Of a stretch of 64,000 nucleotides of DNA, positions 14,816 through 53,852 are shown one piece after another. The stretch's first letter is position 1. Each line of letters starts with the position of its first letter. Origin of the DNA: Candidatus Shapirobacteria bacterium (GTDB lineage: Bacteria; Patescibacteriota; Microgenomatia; UBA12405); the NCBI GenBank assembly GCA_017991615.1, contig JAGOQF010000001.1, forward strand, positions 53,019 to 117,018. Direction: 5' to 3'. The notes beneath the pieces were generated by a model. The model was not told where the DNA came from, ran no database searches, and was given only the letters and a program-made list of their open reading frames with translations. A program made the position numbers and the translations under genes.

Positions 14816-15028
14816 TTAAGAAAACAAATCTCTGATGTTGGTTTTTAGGGCTTTAGCTAATTTATCAATTGTATTTAATGTTGGATTTCTTTTGCCGTTT
14901 TCAATAGCTACTACTGTTCTAGGATCTCTGTAAATTTTCTCTGCCAATTGTTCTTGTGATAATCCGTTTTCTTTTCTTAATTCTCTAATTCTTTCGCCAA
15001 ACTTCTGATAAATATTTGCCATTGACAC
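14816..15028 (-). CDS. XRE-family helix-turn-helix transcriptional regulator
   Basis: IRELRKENGLSQEQLAEKI...RTVVAIENGKRNPTLNTIDKLAKAL matches the Cro/C1 HTH. Confidence 0.8.
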   Translation of the reverse strand: MSMANIYQKFGERIRELRKENGLSQEQLAEKIYRDPRTVVAIENGKRNPTLNTIDKLAKALKTNIRDLFS

Positions 15029-15088
15029 AATCTGACATAAATGTCACTATTACAACAGGAAATATATTTCGTATTTTTATATTAAATT

Positions 15089-15829: not shown

Positions 15830-15836
15830 TTTATAT

Positions 15837-16088
15837 CTATTTGTTTACAAATAAATCTATTCTAATTTTGTCCCATATTGTCCGCCATACTGAAAAATCG
15901 TCATTTTTCCCCATATTTTCGAGATAAGAAAATGGTTGTTTATACGTAACCTTTTGAAGTTTTTGATTTTCTATTGTAGCGTTCCAAAGTGTTGATTTTA
16001 GTAAATTGTCTTTTACTTCCCTATCGCCAGAGTCATACATTTTTTTGAGGGAAATAGCGGTGTTTTTAAATTTTTTTAAAAGTTCCAA
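15837..16088 (-). pseudogene. Duplicate of the 3' end of the serine recombinase gene (inside the right direct repeat)
   Basis: Translation ELLKKFKNTAISLKKMYDSGDREVKDN...DDFSVWR is identical to the C-terminus of 11224..12714. Confidence 0.75.
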
Positions 16089-23300: not shown

Positions 23301-23897
23301 TTGAGTATGAAAAGTAAATATTTGAGTCAAGGTGGTTTTAGTTTTGGTAATTTTCTGTTGGAGTTTATTCAGTCAATTGTGTTGGCTTTGTCGGTGTTTG
23401 TACTTCTATATTTGTTTGTAGCCCAACCAAACGAAGTTAAAGGAACATCAATGTTTCCAAATTTTAAGGATAAAGAATATTTACTGACGGAAAAAATATC
23501 TTATCAAGTGGGTCAGCCAGAACGGGGTGATGTAGTTATTTTTAAGGCACCTCCGTCTGAGCCATGTGCTGCAGATGAGTGTGAATATATTAAGAGAGTT
23601 ATTGGAGTTCCAGGAGATAAAGTGATGGTATCTAAGGGTGATGTTTATGTAAACGGACAAAAGTTGGTCCAGGATTTTTTGCCAGAGATGGTATATACCT
23701 CACCAGGTGATTATATGAAGGAGGGGGTAGAGCGAGTAGTTCCAGATGGACAATATTTATGTTTTGGTGATAATCGACCTAATTCTAGGGATAGTCGTGA
23801 GTTTGGACCGATTGATAGGAGCTTGATTATAGGTAAAGCGTTTATGAAATATTGGCCAATTAGTGCTATCGAGATGGTTCCTAAGGTTAGGTTTTAG
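23301..23897 (+). CDS. lepB: Signal peptidase I (S26)
   Basis: GTSMFPNF (catalytic Ser), RGDVVIF, KRVIGVPGD (Lys box), GDNRPNSRDSR. Confidence 0.85.
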   Translation: MSMKSKYLSQGGFSFGNFLLEFIQSIVLALSVFVLLYLFVAQPNEVKGTSMFPNFKDKEYLLTEKISYQVGQPERGDVVIFKAPPSEPCAADECEYIKRVIGVPGDKVMVSKGDVYVNGQKLVQDFLPEMVYTSPGDYMKEGVERVVPDGQYLCFGDNRPNSRDSREFGPIDRSLIIGKAFMKYWPISAIEMVPKVRF

Positions 23898-24738
23898 TTT
23901 TAGGATCAGTAAGATCTTTTTGACAGATTTGTTTGTATAAATCTTTGAGATTGTTAAATCTTTGATCGACAGTGCCTTTGAATTGGAAAGTTACTTGGGT
24001 AGCAACGTTGGTTTGGGTGATTTTGACATGGGTAGTGGTATCGTTGAAAAAACTTTTCATATCAAGACTGATATTGTCTAGTCGAGATTTGAGGAACTGA
24101 GGAATATTTTCTTTAGTAATAGGTACAGAACCTTCTTCAATTTTTTTCTTCATCCTTCTGGCAATATCTTCGGTTCGTCTAACAGAAGCTTTTTCTTTGA
24201 GGACAATTTTGTAGGCTTCAATCATTAACCGAGTATCACCAATACTAGATAAGGCTCGAGCATGACCTTCACTAATAAGTTCAGACAAAAGACCATCTTT
24301 AATAGCATCTGGTAGGGTTAGAAGTTTAAGACAATTGATGACATAAGGGACGCTTTTGCTGACTTTTTTGGCAATTTGGTGATTATCAAAATTAAATTCG
24401 TCTTTGAGTCTAAGGAAGGCTTTAGCTCTTTCGATAGGATTTAGATCTTTTCTTTGAACATTTTCAACAATGGCCATCTCTAACATTTGTTGAGGATTGG
24501 TTTGTTTGATGATGGCTGGGACGTATTCGAGTTTAAGAATTCTAGCAGCCCGCCAGCGGCGTTCGCCAGCAATAATTTGATAACCGGCGGGAGTTTTAGC
24601 AATGATTAGTGGTTCTAAAATACCATGTTCTTTGATAGATTCGACCAATTCGGAAATTGATTCTGGAGAGATAATACCGCGGGGTTGAAGTGGATTAGGT
24701 TCAAGTTGATTAGTAGGTATTTGAGTGATTTGTTTCAT
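23887..24738 (-). CDS. parB: ParB/Spo0J-like partition / nucleoid-binding protein (no adjacent parA)
   Basis: ParB box GERRWRAARIL, N-terminal LEPNPLQPR. Confidence 0.8.
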   Translation of the reverse strand: MKQITQIPTNQLEPNPLQPRGIISPESISELVESIKEHGILEPLIIAKTPAGYQIIAGERRWRAARILKLEYVPAIIKQTNPQQMLEMAIVENVQRKDLNPIERAKAFLRLKDEFNFDNHQIAKKVSKSVPYVINCLKLLTLPDAIKDGLLSELISEGHARALSSIGDTRLMIEAYKIVLKEKASVRRTEDIARRMKKKIEEGSVPITKENIPQFLKSRLDNISLDMKSFFNDTTTHVKITQTNVATQVTFQFKGTVDQRFNNLKDLYKQICQKDLTDPKTKT

Positions 24739-25431: not shown

Positions 25432-26430
25432 TTATGAGGAATAGATGATACCGATGGAAAAAAGCAGGGTTAAAATAGATGATCCACCGACGGAAAGGAA
25501 TGGTAGAGGAATTCCGGTGATAGGAAGAATACCGATATTCATTCCGATATTAACAAAAACCTGCATCCAAATTTGAAGAGTAATGCCGAGAGTAAATAAA
25601 AATAGAACCCGGTTATTGCGAACCAGAAAGGCTTTGTCTAAAAGAGTTTTGATAAGAAAATAGTAGGCGGTTAAAATGATAAATATACCAACAAAACCAA
25701 GTTCTTCGGCAGTGGCAGCAAACATAAAATCAGTGTGTTTTTCGGGGAGGAACAAAAGTTGTCCTTGTGTCCCTTTTTTGTAACCTTTGCCAAGAAAGCC
25801 GCCAGAGCCAATGGCTATTTTTGACTGAATAACATTGTAACCTTTATCGAGTGGATCTGAGGCAGGATTGAGAAAAGTAACAATTCTTTCTTTTTGGTAA
25901 TCATGAAGAGCGAAGTTATAAATCATGGGCGAGATAACTAAAAAAATAGTGGTAATAACTAGAGAAATTTTAAGGAATTTTGGATTATAAATAATAATTG
26001 GAGCCATGAGAAATAAAACTGATAAAGCACTGCCAAGGTCAGGTTGGAGAGCGATTATGCCGACAGGGATAAGGTGAAGGAGAGGAAATTTGGTATTGCT
26101 TAAAAATAGTAATAACCAGGGTTTGACAATCTCTGAAGGTTGAATAGAAACGAAACCAAGATCAATCCAGCGACAGGAACCTCGAGTGATAGAATTTAGA
26201 ACGATAGGAAGTAAAAGCAGAGCGCAACTAGTAAAGAAGATTAGTCGTTTAGAGGAAGAAATTTGTTTAGGATTTATTTGACGACCGATAAAAAACAAGA
26301 TTAAACCGATAATCCAGGCGATAAGTTGTTTTTTGACTAAATTTGGTGCCAGAGAGCTGACCATAAGAATATTGATAGCAAATAAAAAAACTAGGCTGAT
26401 TAAAACTGGTAACCAAGGAGATTTAGACAT
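25432..26430 (-). CDS. SEDS family protein (RodA/FtsW-like peptidoglycan glycosyltransferase)
   Basis: KHTDFMFAATAEELGFVG and C-terminal GGSSILTLL, ten TM helices. Confidence 0.8.
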   Translation of the reverse strand: MSKSPWLPVLISLVFLFAINILMVSSLAPNLVKKQLIAWIIGLILFFIGRQINPKQISSSKRLIFFTSCALLLLPIVLNSITRGSCRWIDLGFVSIQPSEIVKPWLLLFLSNTKFPLLHLIPVGIIALQPDLGSALSVLFLMAPIIIYNPKFLKISLVITTIFLVISPMIYNFALHDYQKERIVTFLNPASDPLDKGYNVIQSKIAIGSGGFLGKGYKKGTQGQLLFLPEKHTDFMFAATAEELGFVGIFIILTAYYFLIKTLLDKAFLVRNNRVLFLFTLGITLQIWMQVFVNIGMNIGILPITGIPLPFLSVGGSSILTLLFSIGIIYSS

Positions 26431-32062: not shown

Positions 32063-33137
32063 AAATTAATTTAAGAAGTTTTTGGTTGGGTTTAATTTTT
32101 GTTTTGACAATTTGGTTTGGAATTTGAGACAGTTGATTGATAGCTGATAATAGACTCTTTGGGGTAAGATCTTTTTGATTGATAATTATGGTTTGCTTAT
32201 TTAATTTTTTTTGAACCCAGAGAGCATTGAGAAGTTGTTCATCTTGTTGACTTTGAGGTAAGGGAATCAAAATTGATTTTTTAGAGAAAGCCACAATTTC
32301 TTGACTGGTGTTGGCGCCAGCACGACCAATAATGATATCGGCAAAATTTATAATCCAGGCAAAATCTTGGGTATCAAAGTAGTCGGAAGCAAAATAGTTA
32401 GATTTATTTATTTTTTTAAATAAAGGTAAATCTGATTTACCGGTTTGATGAATTATATTGTAATTATCAAGTTTTTTAATAAGAGATTTAATGCAGAGGT
32501 TAATACTATGAGAACCTTGATTGCCAGCGGTGATATAGATTAAAGGAAGGTGTTTTTTGAAATTTATTTTTTGGGGGCGTTGGGGGTGAGGTTGAAACAG
32601 TTGAGATCTAAGTAAATTGCCAGTGATGGCTATTTTTGATGAAGGTAATTGAGTCATTTGACGTTCGTTTTCAAAAGAGAGAGCGATTTTATCAACAAAA
32701 CGGCTGTTAATTTTAGTAGTTAAGCTGTTGGTTAGGGTTTGTTCGTGGGTAATGGTTTTGATATTTTTTAGACGGGCGTTAATAATGACGGGGACAGAAA
32801 CATAACCACCGAATGAAACTACAATTTGCGGTTTTATTTTTTTAATAAGACGATAGGATTGAAAAAAGCCATAAATGGTTTTTGGAATGCCAGCAAGAGT
32901 GTTAGGCCAATAGCGTCGGTCGAATTTACCGCAGTAAATTGGGTAAAATTTTATCCCTAGATTAGGAATGACTTTTGATTCAATTGAAGTATCGTTGATA
33001 TTGTTGGAATTGGAATGACGACCAAGATAATTAATTTGCCAGTTAGTTTTTGGATCTGACTGGAGTTGTCGGATTAGTTCGAGAGCGGGAGTGAGATGAG
33101 TGCCGGTGATGATAATGGTTTTTTTTGGTTTGGTCAT
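32049..33137 (-). CDS. murG: Undecaprenyldiphospho-muramoylpentapeptide beta-N-acetylglucosaminyltransferase
   Basis: GT28 fold. C-terminal IIGRAGANTSQEIVAF...IPLP matches MurG. dcw context. Confidence 0.75.
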   Translation of the reverse strand: MTKPKKTIIITGTHLTPALELIRQLQSDPKTNWQINYLGRHSNSNNINDTSIESKVIPNLGIKFYPIYCGKFDRRYWPNTLAGIPKTIYGFFQSYRLIKKIKPQIVVSFGGYVSVPVIINARLKNIKTITHEQTLTNSLTTKINSRFVDKIALSFENERQMTQLPSSKIAITGNLLRSQLFQPHPQRPQKINFKKHLPLIYITAGNQGSHSINLCIKSLIKKLDNYNIIHQTGKSDLPLFKKINKSNYFASDYFDTQDFAWIINFADIIIGRAGANTSQEIVAFSKKSILIPLPQSQQDEQLLNALWVQKKLNKQTIIINQKDLTPKSLLSAINQLSQIPNQIVKTKIKPNQKLLKLIYEII

Positions 33138-34236
33138 TATCAGAGTATAGCAGCAGTGAGTGGTTTTTTTCGACGTTACGAACTAGACCAATGGCAGTCA
33201 TCAGTGTTAAAAGAGAGGAGCCACCATAGGAGACAAAGGGTAAAGGTACACCAGTTAATGGGATAATGTTGGCAATGGCGGAGATATTTATTAATCCTTG
33301 ATATCCGATCCAACAAGCAATGCCGGCAACTAAAAGTGAGGAGAAAGTGTCCTGATGAACTAAAGAAGCCAGTTTAATAAGGTAAGTCAAAAGGAGAATA
33401 TAAATTAAGATAAGGGTGAAAGTACCTAAAAATCCGGTTTCTTCACCGATAATGGCTAGAATAGAATCGGTGGATATTTTGGGAAGAAAGCGGTATTTTT
33501 GGTCAGAGTTGGCAAAACCTTTACCAAAAAATCCGCCAGATGAAAGAGATAAGATGATTTGACTGTTATGGTAAGAGGTGGTTTCTAATTCTTGATCGGG
33601 ATTGAGAAAAGTCTGTAGTCGTGCCAGGCGATAAGGTGAATTGATGATTAGAATAAAAGAAAGACCAATAAGACCTAAACAAAGTAGAAATAGAGGAATA
33701 ACTTTGCCACCAGATAAATAAAAAATGGAAATGATGATGGCTGAAACTAGAATGGCAGTGCTAAGATTTGGTTGAATAATTATGAGGGTAAAAATTATAA
33801 AGAGATGGATAATGAGATTGGTAAAATTACGTTTTGATGGTTGGGTAAATAGGTAAGAAAAATAGAGAACTGAACTAAGTTTAAGTAATTCGGAAGGTTG
33901 GAAACTTAATGGGCCGAGATTGAGCCAGCGGCTGGCGCCAAGAGTTTGATGACTAAATCCTGGGATTAAAACTAGAATTAATCCTAAAATTGATAGAAAA
34001 TAGATGATTGGGGAAAGTTTTTTAATAGAATCGAGTTTAATTTTTGAGGCAATATAAAAGGCTACTAAGCTGATAGATAACCAAAAAAATTGTTTTCTGA
34101 GGAAATAGAATTTGTCACCAGTAGTGATGTTGGCTTCAGTGAGGGAAGAAATAGAAATAAAAATAATACCGGTGATGACGAGAAAAAAAACTAGAGGTAG
34201 AAGTGGAGATTTAGTTAGTTTCATGGAGCAGGTCAA
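33043..34236 (-). CDS. ftsW: SEDS protein FtsW
   Basis: FGKGFANSDQKYRFLPKISTDSILAIIGEETGFLG; dcw context next to murG. Confidence 0.8.
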   Translation of the reverse strand: MTCSMKLTKSPLLPLVFFLVITGIIFISISSLTEANITTGDKFYFLRKQFFWLSISLVAFYIASKIKLDSIKKLSPIIYFLSILGLILVLIPGFSHQTLGASRWLNLGPLSFQPSELLKLSSVLYFSYLFTQPSKRNFTNLIIHLFIIFTLIIIQPNLSTAILVSAIIISIFYLSGGKVIPLFLLCLGLIGLSFILIINSPYRLARLQTFLNPDQELETTSYHNSQIILSLSSGGFFGKGFANSDQKYRFLPKISTDSILAIIGEETGFLGTFTLILIYILLLTYLIKLASLVHQDTFSSLLVAGIACWIGYQGLINISAIANIIPLTGVPLPFVSYGGSSLLTLMTAIGLVRNVEKNHSLLLYSDNDQTKKNHYHHRHSSHSRSRTNPTTPVRSKN

Positions 34237-35386
34237 TAATATGAGGAGGAATAGTCACTGGATTGGTAGATTGACTGAAGGCAACAAAGTCGTTGTATTT
34301 TTTAATGGTTTGATTACTTTTATTTTTTAAGGTAATTTCGGAACCGATAATGTCAGTTTGGTTAATTAACTGTTGATGTTGATTAATATCAATATGAGGA
34401 TTTAGATTGGTAAATTCGGCAAGATGGAACAAAAATAAGGGGTTGAGAGAGTGATTAATTTCGATACGAGTATAAAAAGCAAAGGAGGCAGTCAGTCGTG
34501 GGTTACATTCCAGTAGATAAACTGAATTTTGATTGACAAAAAAGTCTAAACCAAAAAAGCCGCGGTAGTTTAATGATTTTATAAGTTGACTAAATTCTTG
34601 GGTGATTTTAATAACTTGCTGATTAATATTTTGGGGAGCCATAGATGGCCATTGACGACCAACGGTAGTAAAGGGATTTGGGGTTAAAGTTTTAAGACCG
34701 GTGTATTGTAGGGCAGGTGGGCTTTGGATAAGTCCTGATGAAGTTAGACAACAATTGTTAATGAGTGAATAACCTTGTAAGAGAGGTGAAAATTTGACAG
34801 TAGTTTCGGAAGGAATTTTATCAGAAACATCGTGCCAATTTTCGGCTAAATGAGTGCTGTTGCCTGCCCAACCAAAATGGGTTTGGATGACTAATTTAGA
34901 ATCTAGTTTTTGTTGATATTTAGTAAAATTTGATTGATTAAATTTATCAATAAAACCTTTGATTATAGGCAGGTTATTTTTTTGGCAAAAGTTAAAAAAT
35001 TCATTTTTATTTTCAAGAAAACGATTGAGTTGATGGGAAACAGCGGCACAAATCCAATTATGTTGACGGCAGATAATTTCGATTTTTGCTGAAGGTTTAA
35101 AAGGAATAATAACTGGAGTTTTTTTGCCGGCAGTGGAATTGATATAGTTGATAACTTGGGGCGAAGATAGTAGTCGACCGGTATTTTTTTGAGCTAGGGA
35201 AATATTTTTTTCTTCAAGACAAAAATAAGGAATTTGTTGTTGTCTAAGTGAAGTAAAAATGGGACTGCTAAAAGCGTAAATGAGGTGAAAATTTTTCAGT
35301 TGAGGTAATTGGATGTCCAGGAAGTTGTCAACAACTAAAAAATAAAAAATATAGTTTGACTGATTAAGAATTTCAAATAAATCCAT
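34211..35386 (-). CDS. ATP-grasp family ligase (divergent: Ddl-like / carboxylate-amine ligase)
   Basis: C-terminal RGFFGLDFFVNQNSVYLLECNPRLTAS matches the ATP-grasp motif (D..F....G..YLLE.N..P..T). Confidence 0.6.
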   Translation of the reverse strand: MDLFEILNQSNYIFYFLVVDNFLDIQLPQLKNFHLIYAFSSPIFTSLRQQQIPYFCLEEKNISLAQKNTGRLLSSPQVINYINSTAGKKTPVIIPFKPSAKIEIICRQHNWICAAVSHQLNRFLENKNEFFNFCQKNNLPIIKGFIDKFNQSNFTKYQQKLDSKLVIQTHFGWAGNSTHLAENWHDVSDKIPSETTVKFSPLLQGYSLINNCCLTSSGLIQSPPALQYTGLKTLTPNPFTTVGRQWPSMAPQNINQQVIKITQEFSQLIKSLNYRGFFGLDFFVNQNSVYLLECNPRLTASFAFYTRIEINHSLNPLFLFHLAEFTNLNPHIDINQHQQLINQTDIIGSEITLKNKSNQTIKKYNDFVAFSQSTNPVTIPPHIIDLLHETN

Positions 35387-35388
35387 AG

Positions 35389-36210
35389 TTATCTTTTGGC
35401 TCCAGTTAAAAGGATAACTGGGAAGTCTCCAACAGAAAAATTATTCTGGAGAGCTTTTTTATAGGCGGCAAAGGCGAGAGCTCCCTCAAGAGAGGTAGTA
35501 ATTCCAGAACGGCAAAAATAGTCATCGGCAGAAATTATGGCTTTGTTTTGGATAGTAAAGGAGTGGCCGTTAAATTTTTTGATAGTTTGAATAATTTGAT
35601 TTTTATGGGGTAAAAACTTGGCGGATAAAGCATCGGTGATAAGTCTGGTTTCGGGGGTAAAATTGGTATCAAAAATACGGCTGATAGGTGAATTAGCAAC
35701 TGATTGACAACCAAAAAGATGGACATAGGGTGGCAGTTTTTGGGAAATTCCCAAAAGGGTGGTGCCGCTGCCGATAGGGACAAAAAGACTGCTAATTTGA
35801 GGTAATTGCTTGGTAAGCTCAATAGCTATTTGTTGGTAACCGATTTGAGCTATTGGATCGGTGGATTGTCTAAGGAGATAACTGGAGTTATTTTTAGAGA
35901 ACTTAACAGCATCACTGATGGGTTGAGGGGAAATAATAATTTCGACTTCGTATTTTTTGAGAAGATTGAGTTTATTAGGGTTTATTTTTGGTGATAAGAA
36001 GATAATTAGTTTGATCTGGTGTTGGCGACAAAAATGAGCTGCAGAAATAGCGGCGTTGCCAGTGCTAGAGATAACGGCTTGCTGATAGCCTTGTTTTTTG
36101 AGATTTTTGATTTGGAGAGGAATAGCTCTGTCTTTGGCAGAACCGGTTAAATTTTGGTCTTCGCGTTTGAGGTAGAGATTATCTAGTTTGACTAAGGGAG
36201 TATTTGCCAT
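35389..36210 (-). CDS. Fold-type II PLP-dependent enzyme (cysteine synthase / threonine synthase / SbnA-like)
   Basis: PLP-lysine motif KREDQNLTGSAKDR, glycine loop GSGTTLLG. Start set at MANTPLV. Confidence 0.7.
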   Translation of the reverse strand: MANTPLVKLDNLYLKREDQNLTGSAKDRAIPLQIKNLKKQGYQQAVISSTGNAAISAAHFCRQHQIKLIIFLSPKINPNKLNLLKKYEVEIIISPQPISDAVKFSKNNSSYLLRQSTDPIAQIGYQQIAIELTKQLPQISSLFVPIGSGTTLLGISQKLPPYVHLFGCQSVANSPISRIFDTNFTPETRLITDALSAKFLPHKNQIIQTIKKFNGHSFTIQNKAIISADDYFCRSGITTSLEGALAFAAYKKALQNNFSVGDFPVILLTGAKR

Positions 36211-36243
36211 ATAATGTTGCCTAGACTTTATTATATATTTTTT

Positions 36244-36414
36244 ATGTTTATGACACAAATGAATAAAATTATTTGTCCTGATTGTGAGGCAGAAATTAAA
36301 CAACCGGAGAGGTTGATGATTGGTGATATTTTGGAATGTAGTGAGTGTGGCACTGAAGTGGAAATATTATCTTTAGAACCGCTTCAATATAGAGAATTAA
36401 TTGAGGAGAAGTAA
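36244..36414 (+). CDS. LysW-like zinc-ribbon protein (amino-group carrier protein homolog)
   Basis: CPDCEAEIKQPERLMIGDILECSECGTEVEILSLEPLQ matches the LysW pattern CP.CG.E......G..V.C..CG.E.EV..L.PL, but the C-terminus ends EEK rather than EDWGE. Confidence 0.55.
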   Translation: MFMTQMNKIICPDCEAEIKQPERLMIGDILECSECGTEVEILSLEPLQYRELIEEK

Positions 36415-36966
36415 ACGATAGATTCCTTGATTGTCGAAAGTGGGGTCGGTGATGTCAAACTGACCGTAATGAACTCCCCTACCCCAAAAGGAACTGTCAA
36501 CATAACTGATGTTTTTGCCGGTTTTTTCGATGATAAATAAGAGATGACGGCCGTTTTTTTGACGGACAAGGTCGCCGGTTTGGATTTGGTTGTAATCTGT
36601 AATTTTTATAGATAAAGGGGCGGAGGTAAGCATATCAGCTGAAGTTCGTCGGGGGTTAAGATTGATTTTTTTACCTAAAATATGGCCATAGAATATGAGT
36701 AATTGGCTGGCTAGTCCGGAACAGTCAATACCAATTTTGTGTTTTTTTTGAAATTGATAAAGTTGTTTTGGGGTTAGTTTTTTTAAATTTAAGTTTTGTG
36801 AGGCGGCTATTTTTTTGGTTTCTTTTTTGATGTCTTTCCAGTGACCTTTGCCGCCAAGGACTCGTTCTTTGATAATTTTGCCGTTGCGGATGATGTTGGT
36901 CATATAAGGTAGGCCAATATAATTATCAATTTCTTGTTTTAGTTTTTTTAGTTTAGGCCCAACCAT
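36397..36966 (-). CDS. NlpC/P60 family cysteine peptidase (gamma-glutamyl / cell-wall peptidase-like)
   Basis: Catalytic Cys motif IGIDCSGLASQLL with downstream His (GRHLLFI). Confidence 0.6.
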   Translation of the reverse strand: MVGPKLKKLKQEIDNYIGLPYMTNIIRNGKIIKERVLGGKGHWKDIKKETKKIAASQNLNLKKLTPKQLYQFQKKHKIGIDCSGLASQLLIFYGHILGKKINLNPRRTSADMLTSAPLSIKITDYNQIQTGDLVRQKNGRHLLFIIEKTGKNISYVDSSFWGRGVHYGQFDITDPTFDNQGIYRLLLLN

Positions 36967-37982
36967 AGTCCAAAAATAGCGAGAATAATTCCGGCTAACC
37001 AGGCTCGGGTAACAATTTTAGGTTCTTCCCAACCCATACTTTGGAGAGTTAGATGGATTGGGGCGGCGGGAAAGATTTTCTTTTTAAAATATTTTTTACT
37101 AATCATTTGGGCAGCACTACTAATTCCTTCAATAATAAAGGGAGAACCAACAATAATTAAAGGAACTATTTTGCCAAGCATGAGGGCAATAACAGCAAAG
37201 GTGGCTCCAAAGGAAAGAGCACCGACATCACCTAGCCAAATTCTGGCTGGATAAACATTGAAGTAAAGAAAAGCGATAAGAGAGCCGATCCAGAGGGTGA
37301 GAAAAATAGAAATAGGAGTATCCATGGAAGTGTTAGATAAAATCCAGAAAGCAAATAAGGCAATCATTAATAAGCCGCAAGAAAGGCCATCAAGACCATC
37401 GGTAATATTAAAGAAATTAGCAAAACCAGTAATAATAATAGTAGAGATGGGGATAAAAAACCAATTTAACCTGATGGCACCAATAATAGGGATGTAAATA
37501 AAATCAATTTTAAGTTGAAAGTATATTGCTAAAGAAATGATTAGTGATAGAAATATTTGGAGGAAAAATTTATGTTTCATTCTCAAACCAAAAAATCCGG
37601 TTTGTTTGAAACCAAAAAATTTATAAACGTCGTCGTATAGACCGAGTAATCCAAAGCTGATGAAGGTAAAAAATATAATTGAAACTTCACTGGCAATTTG
37701 GTAATTTGAGGAAATAAAAATTTTGGAAAATTTAATGATGGGAAATAGAACAAAAAAGAGAGTGGTAACGGTGACGATGATTAAGACTCCCCCACCGACG
37801 GGAGTGCCTGTTTTACTATTATGAAACTTGTCAAAAATTGGAGTTTTTTTGTTAAGAAAATCGGTAGTCTGTTGCTTTTGGCGTTGAAATTTGAGTTTGT
37901 AAAGAATGTTAATAAAAGGAATAACCAAAATACTGGTAATTAAAAAAGAAAACAACAGCAGTCCTAAGTATAAATGAATCAT
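36948..37982 (-). CDS. mraY: Phospho-N-acetylmuramoyl-pentapeptide transferase
   Basis: Polytopic; NVYPARIWLGDVGALSFGATFAVIAL. Confidence 0.85.
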   Translation of the reverse strand: MIHLYLGLLLFSFLITSILVIPFINILYKLKFQRQKQQTTDFLNKKTPIFDKFHNSKTGTPVGGGVLIIVTVTTLFFVLFPIIKFSKIFISSNYQIASEVSIIFFTFISFGLLGLYDDVYKFFGFKQTGFFGLRMKHKFFLQIFLSLIISLAIYFQLKIDFIYIPIIGAIRLNWFFIPISTIIITGFANFFNITDGLDGLSCGLLMIALFAFWILSNTSMDTPISIFLTLWIGSLIAFLYFNVYPARIWLGDVGALSFGATFAVIALMLGKIVPLIIVGSPFIIEGISSAAQMISKKYFKKKIFPAAPIHLTLQSMGWEEPKIVTRAWLAGIILAIFGLWLGLN

Positions 37983-39316: not shown

Positions 39317-40714
39317 TTATTTAAATAAATTAATAATTGATTTAAAGATTCGGTTGCCTTCAAGTCCCCCAGAACTCATGTAGATTAAAATATCATTTGA
39401 CGTTAGGCTATGTTTATAATACTGTATAATTTGGGTTTTAAGTGGAAGATAGATTAGTTTTGGACCGAGACAGTCACGAAAATCTTTAGCAGTATTTCTA
39501 TTTTTTTTATCGATATTGCGGTTAAATTTGAGTTGAGTTAGAACCACTTCGGTGGCTAAATCAAAAGCATGTTTGAGTTCATTAAGACTGCTTTTGTATT
39601 GACAAAAAGAGGCGTGAGCTTGGTAGAGAACTTTTATTTTCCTTTTGGGATAATGTTGTCTAATGGCTTCTAAGGTTGATTTGATACGGTTGGCTGATTG
39701 GGCAAAATCATCAAAAAAGAGAATATTTTTAAGTTTGGCGATTAATTCGAGGCGACGTTTAATTCCACGATAAGAGAAAATAAATTTGGAGATAGTTTTA
39801 GAACTAACATTAAGGTAGTCACTGAGAGCAACAGCGGCTAAAATATTTTCAAAATTAAACTGACCAATAAGGGTAGTATTGACTTTAATAATACCAGATG
39901 GGGTACGGATAATGAGGGTGGTGAAATTTTTTTGAGGGATTATTTTTTCTAAAAAATAATCTGATTTGGGAGTGTTGTAAGTGATGATTTTGGCCGGTGA
40001 GTAATGACTAAGTTTTGAGGCAGATTGACTTTGTTGGTTGATTAACAAGACTCCGTTTGAGGGTAGATTTTGGACAAGTTTTTTGTAGGCTTGAAAATTT
40101 GATGAGGCGGAGGAGTAGGAATCTTTGTGTTCCCAGTCAGCGCTGGTAATAAGGAGATATTTGACCGGATAGTAAAGAAATTTGGCATGTTTGTCTAGTC
40201 CGTGGATAGATTCGTCGCCTTCAACTATTGACCAAGTAGATGTTGATATTTTAATGGGATTAAATTTATTTTTAGGACTACCACCAAACATATAACTTGG
40301 TTTAAATTTGGTGTGACGAAAAATCCAGGCTAGAAGACTAGTGATAGTAGTTTTGCCAAAACTACCAGCGACAACAATAGAGTTGGATTTGACGATGTTT
40401 TTGGCGATATACTTAGTGGCGGATAGGTAGGGAATTTTTTGTTGTTTGATTTGTTTAAATTCTTCTTTGGTGTTTTCAAACAAATCATAAGATGAGCCGA
40501 TAATAGCTTGATCAATTTGATGATTAATGTCGGTAATGTTGATTTTTATGCCAGCTTTTTTGAGAGTAGTACTGATGGGAGGAAAAATTTTGGGTTGGTC
40601 GGAACCAGTGACTTTGGCACCGGCTTGTTTGAGAGCAATAGCAAGATTGGCAGTCATGGTGCCGGCAATTCCCAGAATGTGAATATGGAGATTAGATAAA
40701 GGTTGATTTGTCAT
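39317..40714 (-). CDS. murC: UDP-N-acetylmuramate--L-alanine ligase
   Basis: HIHILGIAGTMTANLAIALKQAGAKVTGSD (MurC N-domain) and P-loop GSFGKTTITSLL. Confidence 0.75.
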   Translation of the reverse strand: MTNQPLSNLHIHILGIAGTMTANLAIALKQAGAKVTGSDQPKIFPPISTTLKKAGIKINITDINHQIDQAIIGSSYDLFENTKEEFKQIKQQKIPYLSATKYIAKNIVKSNSIVVAGSFGKTTITSLLAWIFRHTKFKPSYMFGGSPKNKFNPIKISTSTWSIVEGDESIHGLDKHAKFLYYPVKYLLITSADWEHKDSYSSASSNFQAYKKLVQNLPSNGVLLINQQSQSASKLSHYSPAKIITYNTPKSDYFLEKIIPQKNFTTLIIRTPSGIIKVNTTLIGQFNFENILAAVALSDYLNVSSKTISKFIFSYRGIKRRLELIAKLKNILFFDDFAQSANRIKSTLEAIRQHYPKRKIKVLYQAHASFCQYKSSLNELKHAFDLATEVVLTQLKFNRNIDKKNRNTAKDFRDCLGPKLIYLPLKTQIIQYYKHSLTSNDILIYMSSGGLEGNRIFKSIINLFK

Positions 40715-41408
40715 ATTTTAACCATTGATGATTATAAAAGTGTTCAAATCCGGGCATATTTCTTTTGTAATAACCGGTTGATAAAGAGAATCGACCTAGA
40801 TAGCAATAATCTAAATTTAGGTCATAACTATCAATGATAGTCTGTAAAACCAATCTTATAGGGAGATTACCATGATTATAGTTAGGGTGATAAAAGACAT
40901 AAGCGATATGGCTGATTTGATCAGAAAAATAGCAAATTGAATAAGCGACGATGTTATTTTGCTCATCTTTCCATATATATAGATAATTAAAAATATGTTT
41001 ATTAAAAATGGTTTTAACAGAATTTATAGGAAAATCCCAACCCAATTGTTTAATCCAAGAAGAGATTTGTTTTTGGGTATCGGGAGTAAGTTTAAATTCA
41101 TTTAAAGAAATTTTTTGGTAAGTAAAATGCTGAGTTTTACTGAGAATGCGGCGGTTTTCGGAATTGAGTTGAAATGATTGTTTTAGGTTGGAGCGGCAAC
41201 TAGTGTCGGAATACCAAAAACCGGCTTGATTTCTTTGGGGTAGGAGCCCTTGGGAGTAATTAATTTCAGGAGATTGATTGTTTTTGAGATTATATTGAGG
41301 CATCAGCTTGGCGTAATTTAAAGGCAGTTCTGAAAGCTTCGGCTTCAGACCAAGGATATTCAGTATTGCCGTCAAGAATGGTAGTTTCATGACCTTTACC
41401 CATAGCAA
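40692..41408 (-). CDS. ATE/Bpt-like aminoacyl-tRNA--protein transferase homolog. Its real start may be an internal Met near 41303.
   Basis: C-terminal DYCYLGRFSLSTGYYKRNMPGFEHFYNHQWL resembles the ATE_C consensus (YLGY....YK..F.P.E....W). N-domain has a Cys-containing segment. ~238 aa fits Bpt. Confidence 0.45.
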   Translation of the reverse strand: MLWVKVMKLPFLTAILNILGLKPKLSELPLNYAKLMPQYNLKNNQSPEINYSQGLLPQRNQAGFWYSDTSCRSNLKQSFQLNSENRRILSKTQHFTYQKISLNEFKLTPDTQKQISSWIKQLGWDFPINSVKTIFNKHIFNYLYIWKDEQNNIVAYSICYFSDQISHIAYVFYHPNYNHGNLPIRLVLQTIIDSYDLNLDYCYLGRFSLSTGYYKRNMPGFEHFYNHQWLKYDKSTFI

Positions 41409-42675
41409 TGATAATATCTTTGGCTTGAGCTAAACTGACAGCTAAATTGAAAGCGTCTTGGCGATTAGGAATGTTGAAATAAATAAATTTATTTTTATTA
41501 TTTCTGATGGTTTTTTTAATTTCAGAGAGTGGTTGGTTATGATCAATTAAAATTGAATCATTGGAGATACCACTAATGATTTGTTGATTAATCTGGTTAA
41601 TATTTTCGTTGCGGGTATCATCGGCGGTAATAAAAGCGATGTCGGCTAGTTGAGAAACAATATTACCCATAATAGGACGTTTGGTTTGATCTCGGCCGCC
41701 AGTAGCACCGAAAATGGTTAAGATTCGGTTTTGTCCGATTTTACGGAGAGAAGAAAGGGTATTTTTGATGGCATTTGGAGTGTGAGCAAAATCAATTAGT
41801 GCTAGAATATCTAATTGATTGCTGACTTCTTCACGTCGACCTTTGGTATCAGGGAAGTTTTTGATAGTTTCTAGGGCATATTTAGGATTAATTTTGAGTT
41901 GTTCGATAACAGCGATGGCGGCTAGAATATTATAAGTCTGGTAGTAATAAGGACTATTAGTTTTTATTTTGAGATTATTAAGATTGAAGCTAAGTGAATT
42001 TTTATTTAATTTAATTTTTTTGGCCTGATAATCTGATGGTTGTTTAATACTGTAAGTTATTATTGATTTGCTAACCAAACTATTTTTAATAGTTTGATAA
42101 GAGTCGTCATCGCGATTGAGAATAGAGATCTTTGATTGGGAAAAGATGAGACTTTTGGTTTTAATATAACGATTCATATCATGGAAATAATCTAAGTGTT
42201 CGTGAGAAGTATTAGTGATAACAGAAACTTCAAAATTACAACCGTAGTAACGAAATTGGTCAAGAGCATGGGCAGTAACTTCACAGACAACATGAGTAAC
42301 GCCAGCATCAACCATTTTTTTGAAGATCTTTTGAATGACTGAGGGATCAGGACTGGTTATATGAAGACCGGTGTCAATTTCTTCATTGCCATATTTAGCA
42401 CCGATGGTGGTAATAACACCGGCATTAATGCCTGATTTTTTGAGGATTTCATAAAGTAGAATTGAAGTAGTGGTTTTGCCATCAGTGCCGGTAACGCCAA
42501 TTAAAGTTAGTTTTTTGGAAGGCCAATGATAGTAGTAATTGTAAAAAATACTTTTAGAAAGATGAAAGAGGCGGTTTTTGATTTTTTGCCACATTTTGAA
42601 TGATTTAATTATAACAAACCGTTGATTTTTGAGACCATTTTGAACCAAATTGGGGCGGCGGTGTTTGAACCCCAT
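41290..42675 (-). CDS. murE: Mur ligase, most likely UDP-MurNAc-tripeptide synthetase MurE (short N-domain)
   Basis: P-loop GVTGTDGKTTT, C-terminal GKGHE motif. Follows ftsI in the dcw order. Confidence 0.65.
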   Translation of the reverse strand: MGFKHRRPNLVQNGLKNQRFVIIKSFKMWQKIKNRLFHLSKSIFYNYYYHWPSKKLTLIGVTGTDGKTTTSILLYEILKKSGINAGVITTIGAKYGNEEIDTGLHITSPDPSVIQKIFKKMVDAGVTHVVCEVTAHALDQFRYYGCNFEVSVITNTSHEHLDYFHDMNRYIKTKSLIFSQSKISILNRDDDSYQTIKNSLVSKSIITYSIKQPSDYQAKKIKLNKNSLSFNLNNLKIKTNSPYYYQTYNILAAIAVIEQLKINPKYALETIKNFPDTKGRREEVSNQLDILALIDFAHTPNAIKNTLSSLRKIGQNRILTIFGATGGRDQTKRPIMGNIVSQLADIAFITADDTRNENINQINQQIISGISNDSILIDHNQPLSEIKKTIRNNKNKFIYFNIPNRQDAFNLAVSLAQAKDIIIAMGKGHETTILDGNTEYPWSEAEAFRTAFKLRQADASI

Positions 42676-49935: not shown

Positions 49936-50577
49936 TTACCAACGAGAAATCATCGACATGGGAGTTTTGAGAATGATGAGAAGCTCTTGGCGGATAGATT
50001 GATTGCGGATGTATTTGGAATCAAGTTTGGCTCGTTGTTCAAAATTGAGTTCATTTCTGCCGGATGTTTGCCAAAGACCAGTAATGCCTGGTTTGACGGA
50101 TCGGATGTCATCAATATATTTTTTGGTGTTTGGATATTTCTTTTCGTATTCTTGAAGTTCTTCTTCGCGATAGGCTCGAGGGCCAACCAAACTCATTTCT
50201 CCTTTGAGAACGTTGACTAATTGAGGAAATTCATCGATTGATGAGGCTCGGATAATTTTACCGATGGGAGTAATACGAGGATCTTCCGACATAGGTAATT
50301 TCCATCCGCTTTCTTTGTATTTTTTCCATAATTCAGGATAATTTTCTCGGAGACGTTTGTCGTTGTCGCCAGTGTACATGGAACGAAATTTGTACATCCA
50401 AAATTCTTTGCTATCCTTGGTAACTCGTTTTTGTTTGAAGAAAACTGGTCCAGGTGAAGTGATTTTGATTAAGATGGTAGTTATCAAAAATATGGGAGAA
50501 AAAATAATCATCAGAACGATAGAACTGATGATATCAAGTATTCGTTTAAAAACGTTGAAATAGGGTTTATTTTTCAT
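49936..50577 (-). CDS. Polyprenyl-phosphate sugar-1-phosphate transferase (PglC/WbaP C-terminal-domain type initiating enzyme)
   Basis: KRILDI...PGPVFFKQKRV...KFRSM...DEFPQLVNVLKGEMSLVGPRA. Confidence 0.85.
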   Translation of the reverse strand: MKNKPYFNVFKRILDIISSIVLMIIFSPIFLITTILIKITSPGPVFFKQKRVTKDSKEFWMYKFRSMYTGDNDKRLRENYPELWKKYKESGWKLPMSEDPRITPIGKIIRASSIDEFPQLVNVLKGEMSLVGPRAYREEELQEYEKKYPNTKKYIDDIRSVKPGITGLWQTSGRNELNFEQRAKLDSKYIRNQSIRQELLIILKTPMSMISRW

Positions 50578-51662
50578 GATTTTTTAAGAAAAAATGATTT
50601 ATATTTTTTATTTTTGACCATTTTACTGATAAGATCACGGACATGATAACTATTATCTAGGTGACAAATAAGCAGACCATCATTGGTATCAATAATGGCT
50701 AGATTATTAACTCCAACTAAACCGATAAGTTTATTTTTAGGACCATTAATAAGGCAATTGGTGGAATTGTAGGTAAGATAGTTGGTATCGGGGTTAAGAA
50801 CAGCATTATTGTCAAGATCTTTGTCTGATCGTTGGTGAATAGATTTCCATTCGCCAATATCACTCCAATCAAAAGTGGCGGGAATGACATAAATTTTGTC
50901 ACTTTTTTCGGAAACGGAACGATCAATAGGTAGATCGGGTGATTTGGAATAAATTTTGGTGACGATTTTGGGTTTGAGATCAGAGTTGATAAGTTGTTGA
51001 TAGAGCTTAAAATATTCCGGTTGAAGTTTTTCGATTTCGTTGATCATATCGGTTAAGGTGAAAGTATAAATACCGGAATTCCAAAGAGCACCTTTTTTGA
51101 TTAAGTTTTGAGTCGTTTCTTTGTCAGGTTTTTCAATAAATAAACTGACATTGGAAAAGGGTTGATTTTTTTGACGAGGAATAATATAACCGTAGGAAGT
51201 GTTGGCAAAAGTTGGTTTGATACCGATAGTGATAAGGCGATGATGATCTTGAGCTAATTTTTGAGAGTCAGAAATGTTTTTCTTAAAGTTGATGATTTTT
51301 TTGATGTAGTGATCGGCAGGAGTAGTAGTAACTACGGCTTGAGGATCAATTTTTTGAATATGGGCTAGGCTGAGAAGAATGGCCATGGTGGTGTTTTTTT
51401 TGCTAGGTTCGTAGATAAAGTTTTGAGGTGGAAGTTTTTTGCCGAGGATTTTATCAATTTTTGGTTGATATTTTTGGTTGGAGACAATAAAAATATTTTT
51501 GTTAGGGCAAAGTTTTTGGCAACGAGAAAAAGTTTGTTCTAAAAGAGTTTTTTTACCTAAAATTTTGAGAAATTGTTTGGGATGACCGGCGTGAGAAAGT
51601 GGCCAGAGGCGAGGACCACTACCACCACAGAGAATAACTACATACTGATTTGATTTCGCCAT
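50574..51662 (-). CDS. NDP-sugar pyrophosphorylase (mannose-1-phosphate guanylyltransferase-like)
   Basis: VVILCGGSGPRLWPLS nucleotidyltransferase motif. Confidence 0.75.
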   Translation of the reverse strand: MAKSNQYVVILCGGSGPRLWPLSHAGHPKQFLKILGKKTLLEQTFSRCQKLCPNKNIFIVSNQKYQPKIDKILGKKLPPQNFIYEPSKKNTTMAILLSLAHIQKIDPQAVVTTTPADHYIKKIINFKKNISDSQKLAQDHHRLITIGIKPTFANTSYGYIIPRQKNQPFSNVSLFIEKPDKETTQNLIKKGALWNSGIYTFTLTDMINEIEKLQPEYFKLYQQLINSDLKPKIVTKIYSKSPDLPIDRSVSEKSDKIYVIPATFDWSDIGEWKSIHQRSDKDLDNNAVLNPDTNYLTYNSTNCLINGPKNKLIGLVGVNNLAIIDTNDGLLICHLDNSYHVRDLISKMVKNKKYKSFFLKKS

Positions 51663-52735
51663 AGTTGATTGATTGTTTGTTTAAAGTTTAGCATAAAATT
51701 TTTTCGAGAAAATTTAGCGGCGTTTTGGGTACAATCTGTAGTTGAGAAATTTTGGGGATTGAACTTGATTAAAGCTTGAGCTAGAGAGTTGGTGGTTTGA
51801 TGGTTAAAAAAGATACCGGTTTTATCGCTAATAACGGTTTCGGTTAGTCCTCCTTTATTGAAAGCAATGACGGGTTTGCCGCAAGCTTGGGCTTCAAGCG
51901 GGGTTAAGCCAAAATCCTCAATTTGAGGACAAATTAAGGCTTGACAATTTTGGTAGAGATAGAGGAGTTTTTTTGGTGAAACTTTGCCGGTAAAAGTAGT
52001 TTGGGAGTGGGGTGATTTATCGGCCAGTTTAATTAACTGGCGTCGACAGCGACCATCTCCGACAATAATTAGTTTTTTATTAGTTTGTTGGCAGGCACGA
52101 ATAGCTAAATCAATCTTTTTATGTTCGACTAGTCGGGAAACGATTAAAAAATAATCGGAGTTTTGGGGTTTTTTGGCGGGGACAAAAAATGAAGTGTCAA
52201 CTCCAGGATAAATAACTTGAGCTGGTCGATGGTAAGCTGATTGAATGCGGTTTTTGACAGTGTTGGAATTGCAGAGACAATAATCGGGTCTTTGACCGTA
52301 GATAAAATCGATTTGTTGGTAGTGTTTGAGAAAAGGAGTTAGAAACTTAAATTGTTTGGGGGTTTGATAAAGATAACGATTGACATTGTGAAAGTAACAA
52401 ACAAACAGAGTTGATGGTGGGGTTAAGAGACAATGGCCAACGGTGGAAGTAGTAGAAATGACGATATCAAATTGAGAAAAATCAAACTTTTCCAAGACTA
52501 AGGGATAAAAAGGGGTGTAAATGAGAGGATTTTGATGACTTAGAGGCAAGCGATCGATTGAGGAAGGAATTACTTTGATAGAAGATGATAGCCAGGGGGT
52601 GTTTTTGGCAGAATAATTTAGGGTAAAAATGGGAGAATCTGGAAAAATTTTGATAAGGTCAAGAAGAACTTTTTCGGCACCACCCCATTGATTTAACCAG
52701 TCGTAAAAAATGGCAATTTTAGGTTTGGTGGTCAT
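51638..52735 (-). CDS. GT4 family glycosyltransferase
   Basis: C-terminal GT-B domain with E..G....EA.A.G.P motif. Confidence 0.7.
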   Translation of the reverse strand: MTTKPKIAIFYDWLNQWGGAEKVLLDLIKIFPDSPIFTLNYSAKNTPWLSSSIKVIPSSIDRLPLSHQNPLIYTPFYPLVLEKFDFSQFDIVISTTSTVGHCLLTPPSTLFVCYFHNVNRYLYQTPKQFKFLTPFLKHYQQIDFIYGQRPDYCLCNSNTVKNRIQSAYHRPAQVIYPGVDTSFFVPAKKPQNSDYFLIVSRLVEHKKIDLAIRACQQTNKKLIIVGDGRCRRQLIKLADKSPHSQTTFTGKVSPKKLLYLYQNCQALICPQIEDFGLTPLEAQACGKPVIAFNKGGLTETVISDKTGIFFNHQTTNSLAQALIKFNPQNFSTTDCTQNAAKFSRKNFMLNFKQTINQLWRNQISM

Positions 52736-53852
52736 TTAAAAGTCGTTGATAAACCGATAAGGTTTTTTTGGCGGTATTTTCCCATGAATATTTATTGACT
52801 TGACGACAACCCTTTTGAATAAGTTGTTGACGTAGATGTGGATTTTTGATAAGACGATTGATTTGTTTGACTAGCTGGCGACTGTCGTGGGGGTCAAAAT
52901 AAAGGACTGAATCCTGATAAATTTCGGGGAGACAGCTGCTATTGGAGGAAATAACTGGACAACCTAAGGCCATAGCTTCGAGACCGGTTAGACTAAAACC
53001 TTCCATAAAGGAAGGATGAACCAAAGCAATGGCGCGGGAATAGAGTTGTTTAAATTGGTTGTCGGGGATGTAACCAAGAAAATCTATTTGATGATTAACT
53101 TTGGCCTTTTTGGCTTCATTTTTGACTTGGTTGGTAAAAAAACTGCGAGCACTAATTATTTTTAGTCTTAGATTTGGTAGGTTTTTTAGAGCCTGAAGGA
53201 TGATAGTAATATTTTTGTGAGGATAAAGGTTGCCGGTGTAGAGGAGGTAATCCCCTACCGGTTTGGAGTTGGGGTTGATTTTGTCAAGATTTTTTTTGAA
53301 ATCGGGATCAACGGCTTCGTGGGTGGTGGTGATTTTTAAAGGAGAAATATTAAAATGTTTAATAATATATCGACGCCAAAAATTGCTAGGAACTATGAGA
53401 GTATTGGTTTTGATAGTGATATGAGTGATTAGTAAATAAAACAAATATTTTGGCCAATAAAAAAAAGAATTTTTGGTAGTATTGGCTTTACCTCGAAAAA
53501 AATGTTTAATCAGATCATGAATAGTGACGACTGATCGACCAAAGTAAAGCAAAGGTTTATTAAAATGAGTAAAGTGGACTAAATCGGGTTTAAGTCGGAA
53601 AATAACAAAAGGTAAAAATAATTGTTCTTTGAGAGAATAGTGGCGAATATTGGTGGTTAAGTAATTAAAATTGTCACCTAAATCAGTTTTAATTTCTGAG
53701 AGAAGTTCGGGATAAACAATGAGACTGAAGCGGTAGCAAGAAAAATGAGGTTGATGGGTTAGGGAGAGAAGAATATTTTTGGTATAACGACCGATGCCAG
53801 TATGTTTGGGGCCATAAAGCCTGGCGTCAATAACAATATGTTTTTTGGTCAT
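52719..53852 (-). CDS. GT4 family glycosyltransferase
   Basis: EGFSLTGLEAMALGCPVISSN. Confidence 0.75.
   Translation of the reverse strand: MTKKHIVIDARLYGPKHTGIGRYTKNILLSLTHQPHFSCYRFSLIVYPELLSEIKTDLGDNFNYLTTNIRHYSLKEQLFLPFVIFRLKPDLVHFTHFNKPLLYFGRSVVTIHDLIKHFFRGKANTTKNSFFYWPKYLFYLLITHITIKTNTLIVPSNFWRRYIIKHFNISPLKITTTHEAVDPDFKKNLDKINPNSKPVGDYLLYTGNLYPHKNITIILQALKNLPNLRLKIISARSFFTNQVKNEAKKAKVNHQIDFLGYIPDNQFKQLYSRAIALVHPSFMEGFSLTGLEAMALGCPVISSNSSCLPEIYQDSVLYFDPHDSRQLVKQINRLIKNPHLRQQLIQKGCRQVNKYSWENTAKKTLSVYQRLLNDHQT

Follow-up and report, generated by a model that had tools for sequence, protein, structure and literature searches.

A conserved gene module built around a LysW-like zinc ribbon in the cell-wall and division operon of Microgenomates bacteria

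Results

Organization of the locus

We analyzed a four-gene module in a 64,000-nt stretch of DNA from a Candidatus Shapirobacteria bacterium (contig JAGOQF010000001.1, positions 53,019 to 117,018), referred to here as the window, in which positions are counted from the first letter. The module is set in a long minus-strand division and cell wall (dcw) operon of this Microgenomates bacterium of the Candidate Phyla Radiation (CPR). The operon reads rsmH, a penicillin-binding protein gene, murE, a gene of the ATE/Fem fold, a murC-like gene, murA, mraY, the four module genes (NlpC/P60 peptidase, zinc ribbon, pyridoxal phosphate [PLP] enzyme, and ATP-grasp ligase), ftsW, murG, an ftsQ-like gene, ftsA, ftsZ, and ileS. 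We found no description of this module in the literature; it is a conserved, undescribed component of the Microgenomates cell-wall and division operon.

The initial annotation had located four open reading frames (ORFs) between ftsW and mraY, and all four are present there. Three follow the direction of the operon on the minus strand: an ATP-grasp ligase (34211–35386; 391 amino acids [aa]; Pfam ATP-grasp_3, E=2.9e-8), a fold-type II PLP enzyme derived from threonine synthase (35389–36210; 273 aa; Pfam PALP, E=2.6e-42), and a predicted cytoplasmic cysteine peptidase or amidase of the NlpC/P60 fold, hereafter P60 (36397–36966; 189 aa), which is an accessory member of the module. The fourth gene lies on the plus strand (36244–36414) and encodes an acidic Cys4 zinc ribbon homologous to LysW (51–56 aa, depending on the start codon). 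The module is flanked upstream by mraY (36948–37982, minus strand) and downstream by ftsW (33043–34236, minus strand), which were assigned by synteny and by the Pfam families Glycos_transf_4 and FTSW_RODA_SPOVE, respectively, in orthologous loci; the 3′ end of the ATP-grasp gene overlaps the start of ftsW. The ribbon gene had been described as divergently transcribed, which is correct with respect to the PLP gene; relative to the P60 gene it is convergent, with an overlap of 18 nt.

The zinc ribbon is a genuine gene with its own candidate promoter

Because the ribbon ORF is short and runs against the operon, we asked whether it encodes a protein. Its homologues number 97, with identities of 62–100%, and the median identity across relatives is 72%, compared with 52–57% for the neighboring genes. 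Nucleotide diversity at the three codon positions is 0.26, 0.17, and 0.53, the pattern of a protein under purifying selection, and Rfam identified no RNA family at the ribbon locus. On these grounds we rejected a chance ORF or an RNA element on the plus strand. The lengths of the orthologues suggest that translation may start at 36250 or 36259 rather than at 36244.

A sigma-70-type promoter is predicted, by consensus match only, at 36188–36215 on the plus strand. Its sequence, TTGACT-16-TATAAT, matches the consensus at 11 of 12 positions and is the best site of the region, and its −10 box abuts the start codon of the PLP gene on the opposite strand. In most relatives a TATAAT lies 50–66 nt upstream of the first Cys codon of the ribbon. 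In related loci the overlap between the ribbon gene and the 3′ end of the P60 gene is 0–50 nt, and the ribbon gene begins 14–45 bp from the PLP start codon, a spacing that places the ribbon promoter inside the PLP gene.

The zinc ribbon is a LysW homologue with a different C-terminus

The initial annotation matched the ribbon to the Cys4 pattern of LysW, the amino-group carrier protein (AmCP), and searches of the Protein Data Bank (PDB) with phmmer together with hhalign comparisons establish true homology. The ribbon scores 42.3 bits against Pfam Zn_ribbon_LysW (PF21344; cut-off 27) and matches the LysW structures of Thermus and Thermococcus (3wwl, 2.6e-6; 5k2m_E, 1.1e-5). In a profile-profile comparison, the ribbon family aligns with eleven canonical LysW sequences at 99.4% probability (E=9.5e-22). 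Like LysW, the ribbon is strongly acidic: 13 residues are acidic and 5 basic, and the net charge is about −8. It nevertheless falls below the curated LysW equivalog scores (TIGR01206, 33.0 vs 53.2; NF041070, 34.1 vs 75).

The two families part at the C-terminus. The EDWGE motif of LysW is not present in the ribbon, which carries ...ELIEEK in its place: hhalign sets the ribbon's ...ELIEE on the ...LAPEE of LysW, after which LysW continues with xEDWGE and the ribbon with a single Lys, leaving its tail about 5 residues shorter. This terminus, [YF]xEL[IV]EEK, is nearly invariant, and the copy in the window ends in ...IEEK. A tail of the form [DE]xK or [DE]K, here termed the K-tail, occurs in all 97 homologues and in all of the 74 complete ORFs recovered from 71 genome loci. 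Glu at position −2 and the terminal Lys at position 0 are near-invariant, with rare substitutions at −2, while position −1 accepts Gln or Thr.

Searching 1.84 billion representative proteins with the ribbon profile returned 872 matches. Among the best 150 of these (representatives at 50% identity), short ribbons with a [DE]xK or [DE]K terminus, typically ...ΦΦEEEK, account for 46 and canonical LysW proteins with ...(W/F)GE for 12; the remainder have poly-acidic tails or tandem ribbons. The K-tail defines a large and diverse LysW-like subfamily. Within the same 150 representatives, 44 exceed 110 aa and are mostly tandem double ribbons with basic, Lys/Arg-rich tails, and many single ribbons carry long poly-Asp/Glu tails that end in Trp, Tyr, or a similar residue. 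Judging from these sequences, the LysW-like superfamily is much broader than the EDWGE and K-tail types. Public databases annotate the ribbons studied here as "lysine biosynthesis protein LysW", and the K-tail finding corrects this systematic mis-annotation.

Ribbon, PLP enzyme, and ATP-grasp ligase form a constant core

A scan of one genome per GTDB species yielded 80 loci, mostly from organisms named Shapirobacteria or Woesebacteria, with ATP-grasp identities of 42–78%. In every species-level locus that spans mraY to ftsW (66/66), gene order and strands are identical: MraY, P60, ribbon on the opposite strand, PLP enzyme, ATP-grasp ligase, FtsW. No insertion among the ribbon, PLP, and ATP-grasp genes was found in 66 genome loci. 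The sole covered locus without a ribbon match (L072) lacks one because the stretch is masked: a run of N occupies the ribbon position (about 232–330), between intact P60 and PLP flanks.

To extend the comparison beyond close relatives, 80 metagenome loci were fetched with distant K-tail sequences, and counts were restricted to loci with enough flanking DNA. A ThrC-like PLP enzyme adjoins the K-tail ribbon in 46/46 loci, an ATP-grasp ligase in 33/33, and a P60 in 44/52, whereas canonical EDWGE LysW loci in the same set have none of the three (PLP, 0/8; ATP-grasp, 0/5; P60, 0/8) and instead carry LysX and LysY. The ribbon is thus conserved beside these enzymes far beyond the window's clade, and canonical LysW is not. 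In the distant lineages the partner enzymes are only 32–39% identical to those of the window (FtsZ, 53–63%), and the ribbon gene, still opposite in strand, is found between the PLP gene and P60 (or MraY). We therefore rejected the idea that the module is an oddity of Shapirobacteria, given that distant K-tail ribbons have the same partners. The ribbon gene invariably runs against an operon that is otherwise one-directional, also in lineages whose enzymes share only about 35% identity.

Linkage also persists where the module has been relocated out of the dcw cluster (L115, L121, L122, and L142). In one of these relocated metagenome loci, L121, genes have been inserted between the PLP and ATP-grasp genes; this stretch (5022–5490 of that locus) holds a HicA/HicB-like toxin-antitoxin pair, an EamA-like transporter, and a 158-aa ORF, with identities judged by eye. 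Since linkage to the PLP and ATP-grasp genes is constant and linkage to P60 varies, the core of the module consists of the ribbon, the PLP enzyme, and the ATP-grasp ligase, with P60 as a frequent accessory. The peptidase, which had been counted as a full member, is therefore a usual partner (44/52 loci) and not a universal one.

The ATP-grasp ligase belongs to neither the LysX nor the Ddl family

The ATP-grasp sequence contains ...GLDFFVNQNSVYLLECNPRLT. The motif YLLECNPRLT reported in the initial annotation is exact, although the spacing given ahead of it (D..F....Y) is off by one residue. LECNPR is invariant in the family, in keeping with the E-x-N-x-R Mg/ATP motif. The AlphaFold 2 model has a mean pLDDT of 94.4 and aligns over 300–329 residues with biotin carboxylase, PurK, and L-amino-acid ligases. 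The structures nearest to it (8ynd, BesA, PGM1, BL00235, and PylC) belong to ligases for amino acids or peptides, and the orthologue from relocated locus L142 matches BesA at 1.6e-7; a PDB sequence search with the ATP-grasp profile gave nothing useful.

Two known families were considered and rejected. Membership of the Ddl family is contradicted by curated scores (Ddl models, 14–19 bits vs 245–310) and by structure comparison, so that the firm grouping with canonical Ddl that might have undone the original proposal was not observed. Assignment to LysX/RimK fails on curated scores and on structures, and the enzyme has no profile similarity to the real LysX of a canonical LysW locus. Being neither LysX-type nor Ddl, the ligase is a new family in the structural group of biotin carboxylase, PurK, and L-amino-acid ligases.

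The PLP enzyme is related to threonine synthase but lacks its phosphate-binding residue

The motif originally quoted for the PLP enzyme, KREDQNLTGSAKDR, is exact. Searched against the PDB, the family profile matches threonine synthase over its full length (ThrC 6cgq, residues 3–296, 7e-31), followed by dehydratases, SbnA (66 bits), fold-II racemases, and CysK, the last two scoring about equally (63–66 bits). All NCBIfam matches fall below cut-off, the best ThrC model reaching 95 against 358 and TIGR00260 27.8 against 167.1. Lys26, which forms the Schiff base, and the SSTGNAA carboxylate loop are invariant. In contrast, the column of the ThrC NPxR Arg, which we take to bind the phosphate of O-phosphohomoserine, is Ala or variable. 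About 35 N-terminal residues that are present in distant orthologues are missing from the enzyme of the window's clade. Descent from threonine synthase is thus indicated, while identity with a housekeeping ThrC, CysK, or IlvA is rejected by curated scores that are far too low and by loss of the phosphate-binding Arg; the housekeeping assignment that had been held up as a possible refutation is not supported.

The P60 peptidase is predicted to be cytoplasmic

The NlpC/P60 fold of the peptidase is confirmed, with the catalytic Cys (in DCSG) and His, although the protein lies near the detection limit of Pfam (E=0.045), has no PDB match by sequence, and is publicly annotated as "hypothetical protein". 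Its nearest structures cleave D-Ala-meso-diaminopimelate or gamma-D-Glu-diamino-acid bonds. It carries a novel N-terminal extension of about 65 aa. We found no export signal (maximum 19-aa Kyte-Doolittle hydropathy, 1.17) and no SH3b or LysM domain by Pfam, from which P60 is predicted to be cytoplasmic. It is the least tightly linked member of the module. Where other genes separate P60 from the ribbon, the inserts are MazG-like, a peptide deformylase (Def), an LCP-family protein (twice), and a transposase-like ORF.

The module occupies the murD position

The module fills precisely the slot that murD takes in the canonical dcw order, between mraY and ftsW. Distant dcw-located versions of the cluster contain MurE, MurC, MurB, MurA, and MurF (TIGR01143, 217–249 bits), and MurD is the sole Mur ligase never found in a dcw cluster that holds the module. 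In the relocated lineage, which comprises four distinct loci with tails of ...PLEEEK (a tail type that includes a Gottesmanbacteria sequence), the order becomes P60, a MurD-like ligase, ribbon on the opposite strand, PLP enzyme, and ATP-grasp ligase; this MurD-like gene scores 185.6 bits with TIGR01087, just under cut-off. The window's own clade has only the MurC-like protein and MurE within 10 kb. No murD, murF, murB, ddl, murI, or alr was found in the 64-kb window together with 10 kb at each end (about 84 kb). The peptidoglycan-synthesis context originally proposed for the module is thus upheld.

The dcw cluster of the window has only two Mur ligases (39317–42675, minus strand). The MurC-like protein scores 238 bits against a MurC cut-off of 335 and 187 with Mpl. 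MurE passes its subfamily cut-off and scores best with diaminopimelate (DAP)-type models, with DDTR where DAP-type enzymes have DNPR. Between them lies a 238-aa protein (40692–41408, minus strand) with weak matches to arginyl- and leucyl-tRNA-protein transferases (ATE_C, 2.9e-4; NCBIfam arginyltransferase, 1.1e-5). Its gene is kept at the same place in Shapirobacteria-type loci and in distant lineages (L099 and L124), and the protein may act on the stem peptide as a Fem-like transferase that depends on tRNA.

Other features of the window

Directly downstream of ileS and the dcw cluster lies a second SEDS protein of the RodA/FtsW family (25432–26430, minus strand; Pfam 4e-79), and a ParB is encoded at 23887–24738. 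A run of glycosyltransferases (GT1, GT2, and GT4), two Wzy-like proteins, a sugar transferase, a nucleotidyl transferase, and a hexapeptide acyltransferase extends over 49936–63204 on the minus strand; it is a large surface-polysaccharide locus adjoining the dcw region. At the other end, a tRNA gene (11189–11262) stands beside a large serine recombinase (11224–12714) and a Rep protein of the ORF2/G2P type (12715–13611). The G+C fraction of the stretch 11189–16000 is low (0.28–0.30, compared with about 0.36), and this stretch probably represents a mobile element that became integrated or the remains of a prophage.

Discussion

A proposed carrier-protein pathway for a peptidoglycan precursor

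We favor, with a probability of roughly 0.4, a reading in which the module supplies peptidoglycan precursor synthesis from a cytoplasmic amino-acid pathway that depends on a carrier protein. At the expense of ATP, the ATP-grasp ligase would load an amino acid onto the C-terminal tail of the ribbon. The bond would most likely connect the epsilon-amine of the terminal Lys with a carboxylate in the side chain of the cargo, so that the alpha-amine and alpha-carboxylate of the cargo stay free. The PLP enzyme would then alter the tethered residue at C-alpha or C-beta, by epimerization or by beta- or gamma-replacement, after which the P60 amidase would cut the isopeptide bond, freeing the product and regenerating the carrier. 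The MurD step is the most probable point at which the product would enter the Mur pathway, as stem residue 2 (D-Glu or a variant). We infer covalent loading, cargo, and product. The reading draws on four observations: the ribbon is homologous to a covalent carrier, its last residue is nearly invariant, it is linked without exception to a ligase and a PLP enzyme, and a cysteine amidase is paired with it.

LysW chemistry itself is excluded by the unrelated loader, the terminal Lys, and the need of a fold-II PLP enzyme for a free alpha-amine. Tethering through the alpha-amine would block such an enzyme, and the carrier ends in Lys, so the chemistry must differ and probably involves a side-chain tether; the conserved carboxylate loop suggests that the PLP enzyme needs the free alpha-carboxylate of its substrate as well. 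The scheme proposed in the initial annotation therefore loses its LysW-style alpha-amine tethering, while its remark that the attachment chemistry may differ holds.

The association with MurD makes glutamate the most attractive cargo and D-Glu the most attractive product. Glutamate and alpha-aminoadipate are also the cargo of LysW and ArgW. In a narrower form of the carrier pathway, which we regard as improbable, the module would be a protein-templated, ATP-driven deracemase that gives D-glutamate (or a variant residue 2) to MurD and replaces glutamate racemase. Here the ATP-grasp ligase would gamma-glutamylate the epsilon-amine of the terminal Lys, and the ThrC-derived PLP enzyme would epimerize the tethered Glu, whose gamma-glutamyl amide would be roughly isosteric with O-phosphohomoserine, the substrate of ThrC. 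NlpC/P60 enzymes typically cleave gamma-D-glutamyl-diamino-acid bonds, and by this specificity the amidase would free the D-isomer only.

Several observations weigh against the carrier pathway. The ATP-grasp ligase is unrelated to LysX and ArgX, the only known AmCP loaders, and the known attachment chemistry cannot apply to a tail that has Lys in place of Glu at its end. P60 is not adjacent to the module in two lineages (L099/L106 and L085/L088/L090), and unrelated genes lie between P60 and the ribbon in six relatives (L038, L050, L067, L073, and L077 among them). The absence of murI, dat, and murD applies only to the approximately 84 kb searched at the locus. Replacing a racemase that takes a single gene with four genes would be costly for an organism with a reduced genome, and the ribbon might be a non-covalent subunit or regulator.

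Alternative readings

This last possibility is the strongest of the competitors, although still unlikely. The ribbon would be a non-covalent subunit, inhibitor, or assembly factor that docks on the ATP-grasp ligase, the PLP enzyme, or P60 and whose C-terminal peptide plugs or completes the active site of this partner, with no cargo involved. In favor, a promoter of its own on the opposite strand suggests separate dosage control for the ribbon gene, which overlaps P60 convergently. In LysW complexes (3vpb and 5k2m) it is the globular surface that docks on the partner enzymes, and this surface is what the ribbon shares with LysW. However, the last residue is near-invariant even though the enzymes are only about 35% identical, which is typical of a reactive terminus (EDWGE of LysW, GG of ubiquitin, EEY of tubulin), and the homologous family is a covalent carrier. 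A reading that we place somewhat lower, and on a par with the deracemase, is branching of the stem peptide: the diamino acid of the UDP-MurNAc-peptide would receive a (D-)amino acid on its epsilon-amine from the ATP-grasp ligase, which would act like the D-aspartate ligase Aslfm, and the PLP enzyme would make the D-amino acid, like Racfm. The ...Glu-Glu-Lys of the ribbon would then mimic gamma-D-Glu-L-Lys as a decoy, regulator, or escort, with P60 as an editing enzyme.

The remaining two readings seem to us less probable again. Canonical peptidoglycan synthesis needs exactly one ATP-grasp enzyme (Ddl) and one PLP enzyme (Alr), ddl and alr are absent from all of these dcw clusters and from the 64-kb window, and fold-II racemases roughly equal CysK in their score with the PLP profile. 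The module might accordingly replace both, with a divergent Ddl-type ligase acting on free amino acids, a fold-II racemase, a P60 that trims or recycles precursors, and a ribbon that is unrelated or minor; this is quite doubtful and leaves both the ribbon and the position of the module unexplained. Least probable of all is a cycle in which the terminal Lys is itself the cargo, pre-loaded genetically. The PLP enzyme would modify its free epsilon-amine, for example by an SbnA- or DabB-like beta-replacement, to give a DAP-like diamino-dicarboxylate; P60 would clip off the modified Lys, and the ATP-grasp ligase would re-add Lys to ...EE, as in the tyrosination of tubulin by TTL and vasohibin. In favor of such a cycle, hhalign places the ribbon Lys just past the ...EE that matches the ...PEE of the LysW linker, with the attachment Glu of LysW six residues further on; position −1 accepts Gln or Thr, so its side chain is not the attachment point; SbnA and DabB show that fold-II PLP enzymes can use amine nucleophiles; and MurE, whose DDTR retains the Arg of the DNPR motif of DAP-type enzymes, has its highest scores with DAP-type models. 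CPR bacteria are generally without DAP synthesis, which also supports a cycle of this kind.

Implications

To our knowledge, LysW-type carriers occur only in lysine and arginine biosynthesis and in a few actinomycete natural-product pathways, always with the EDWGE tail and a RimK-type loader. The K-tail ribbons are a large sister subfamily of LysW with another terminus (...EEK) and another enzyme set, fixed in the division and cell-wall operon of a major CPR lineage. CPR organisms are thought to have almost no amino-acid metabolism, and a module that is universal in a large lineage and lies in an essential operon may fill a gap in their cell-wall metabolism. If the carrier model is correct, protein-templated synthesis of small molecules reaches an essential housekeeping pathway, and the source of a peptidoglycan building block that these bacteria otherwise seem unable to make is explained. 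If the D-Glu version were true, cell-wall synthesis would have its first protein of the amino-group-carrier type, and the module would be a third route to D-Glu. With proteins of 51, 273, 391, and 189 aa, the system is compact enough for reconstitution in vitro.

Comparison with known systems

The closest parallels are the LysW/ArgW AmCP systems for lysine and arginine biosynthesis in Thermus, Sulfolobus, and Thermococcus and those for natural products in Streptomyces, which share with the module a homologous acidic Cys4 ribbon of about 50 aa with a linker, encoded beside an ATP-grasp ligase and a PLP enzyme, and a conserved reactive C-terminus that serves several enzymes. Unlike in those systems, the ligase of the module is not LysX, ArgX, or RimK, and there is no LysZ/Y/J/K set. 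Its PLP enzyme is a ThrC-like protein of fold II and not a fold-I aminotransferase, its amidase is a cysteine enzyme where LysK is a metallo-hydrolase, and it resides in a CPR dcw cluster and not in amino-acid biosynthesis operons.

Individual steps have precedents elsewhere. PylC, which makes N-epsilon-D-ornithyl-lysine, acylates a Lys epsilon-amine, and BesA, which makes gamma-Glu-propargylglycine, activates a gamma-carboxylate. However, BesA, PylC, PGM1, and other peptide ligases are only 8–13% identical to the ATP-grasp ligase, and the substrates of the three named enzymes are free amino acids or short peptides of secondary metabolism and pyrrolysine synthesis, not a zinc-ribbon protein. 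Cycles of ligase and amidase on a terminus are found in the ...EEY cycle of tubulin (TTL and vasohibin) and in glutathionylspermidine synthetase/amidase (ATP-grasp-like and CHAP); these are not homologous to the module and have neither a PLP step nor a link to the cell wall. The P60 has the fold and the catalytic Cys and His of MepS, LytE, CwlO, and YkfC, but differs from them in having no signal peptide or cell-wall-binding domains.

In peptidoglycan synthesis, the MurD2/MurL system of Xanthomonas performs an ATP-driven L-to-D epimerization of tethered Glu (PMC8788868). Its tether is UDP-MurNAc-L-Ala and its epimerase is cofactor-less and AMP-forming, with no carrier protein, PLP enzyme, or peptidase. 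On the hypothesis that the module supplies D-Glu, it would resemble MurD2/MurL as a non-canonical, ATP-dependent route to stem residue 2 that is encoded beside a murD-type gene and epimerizes Glu on a tether.

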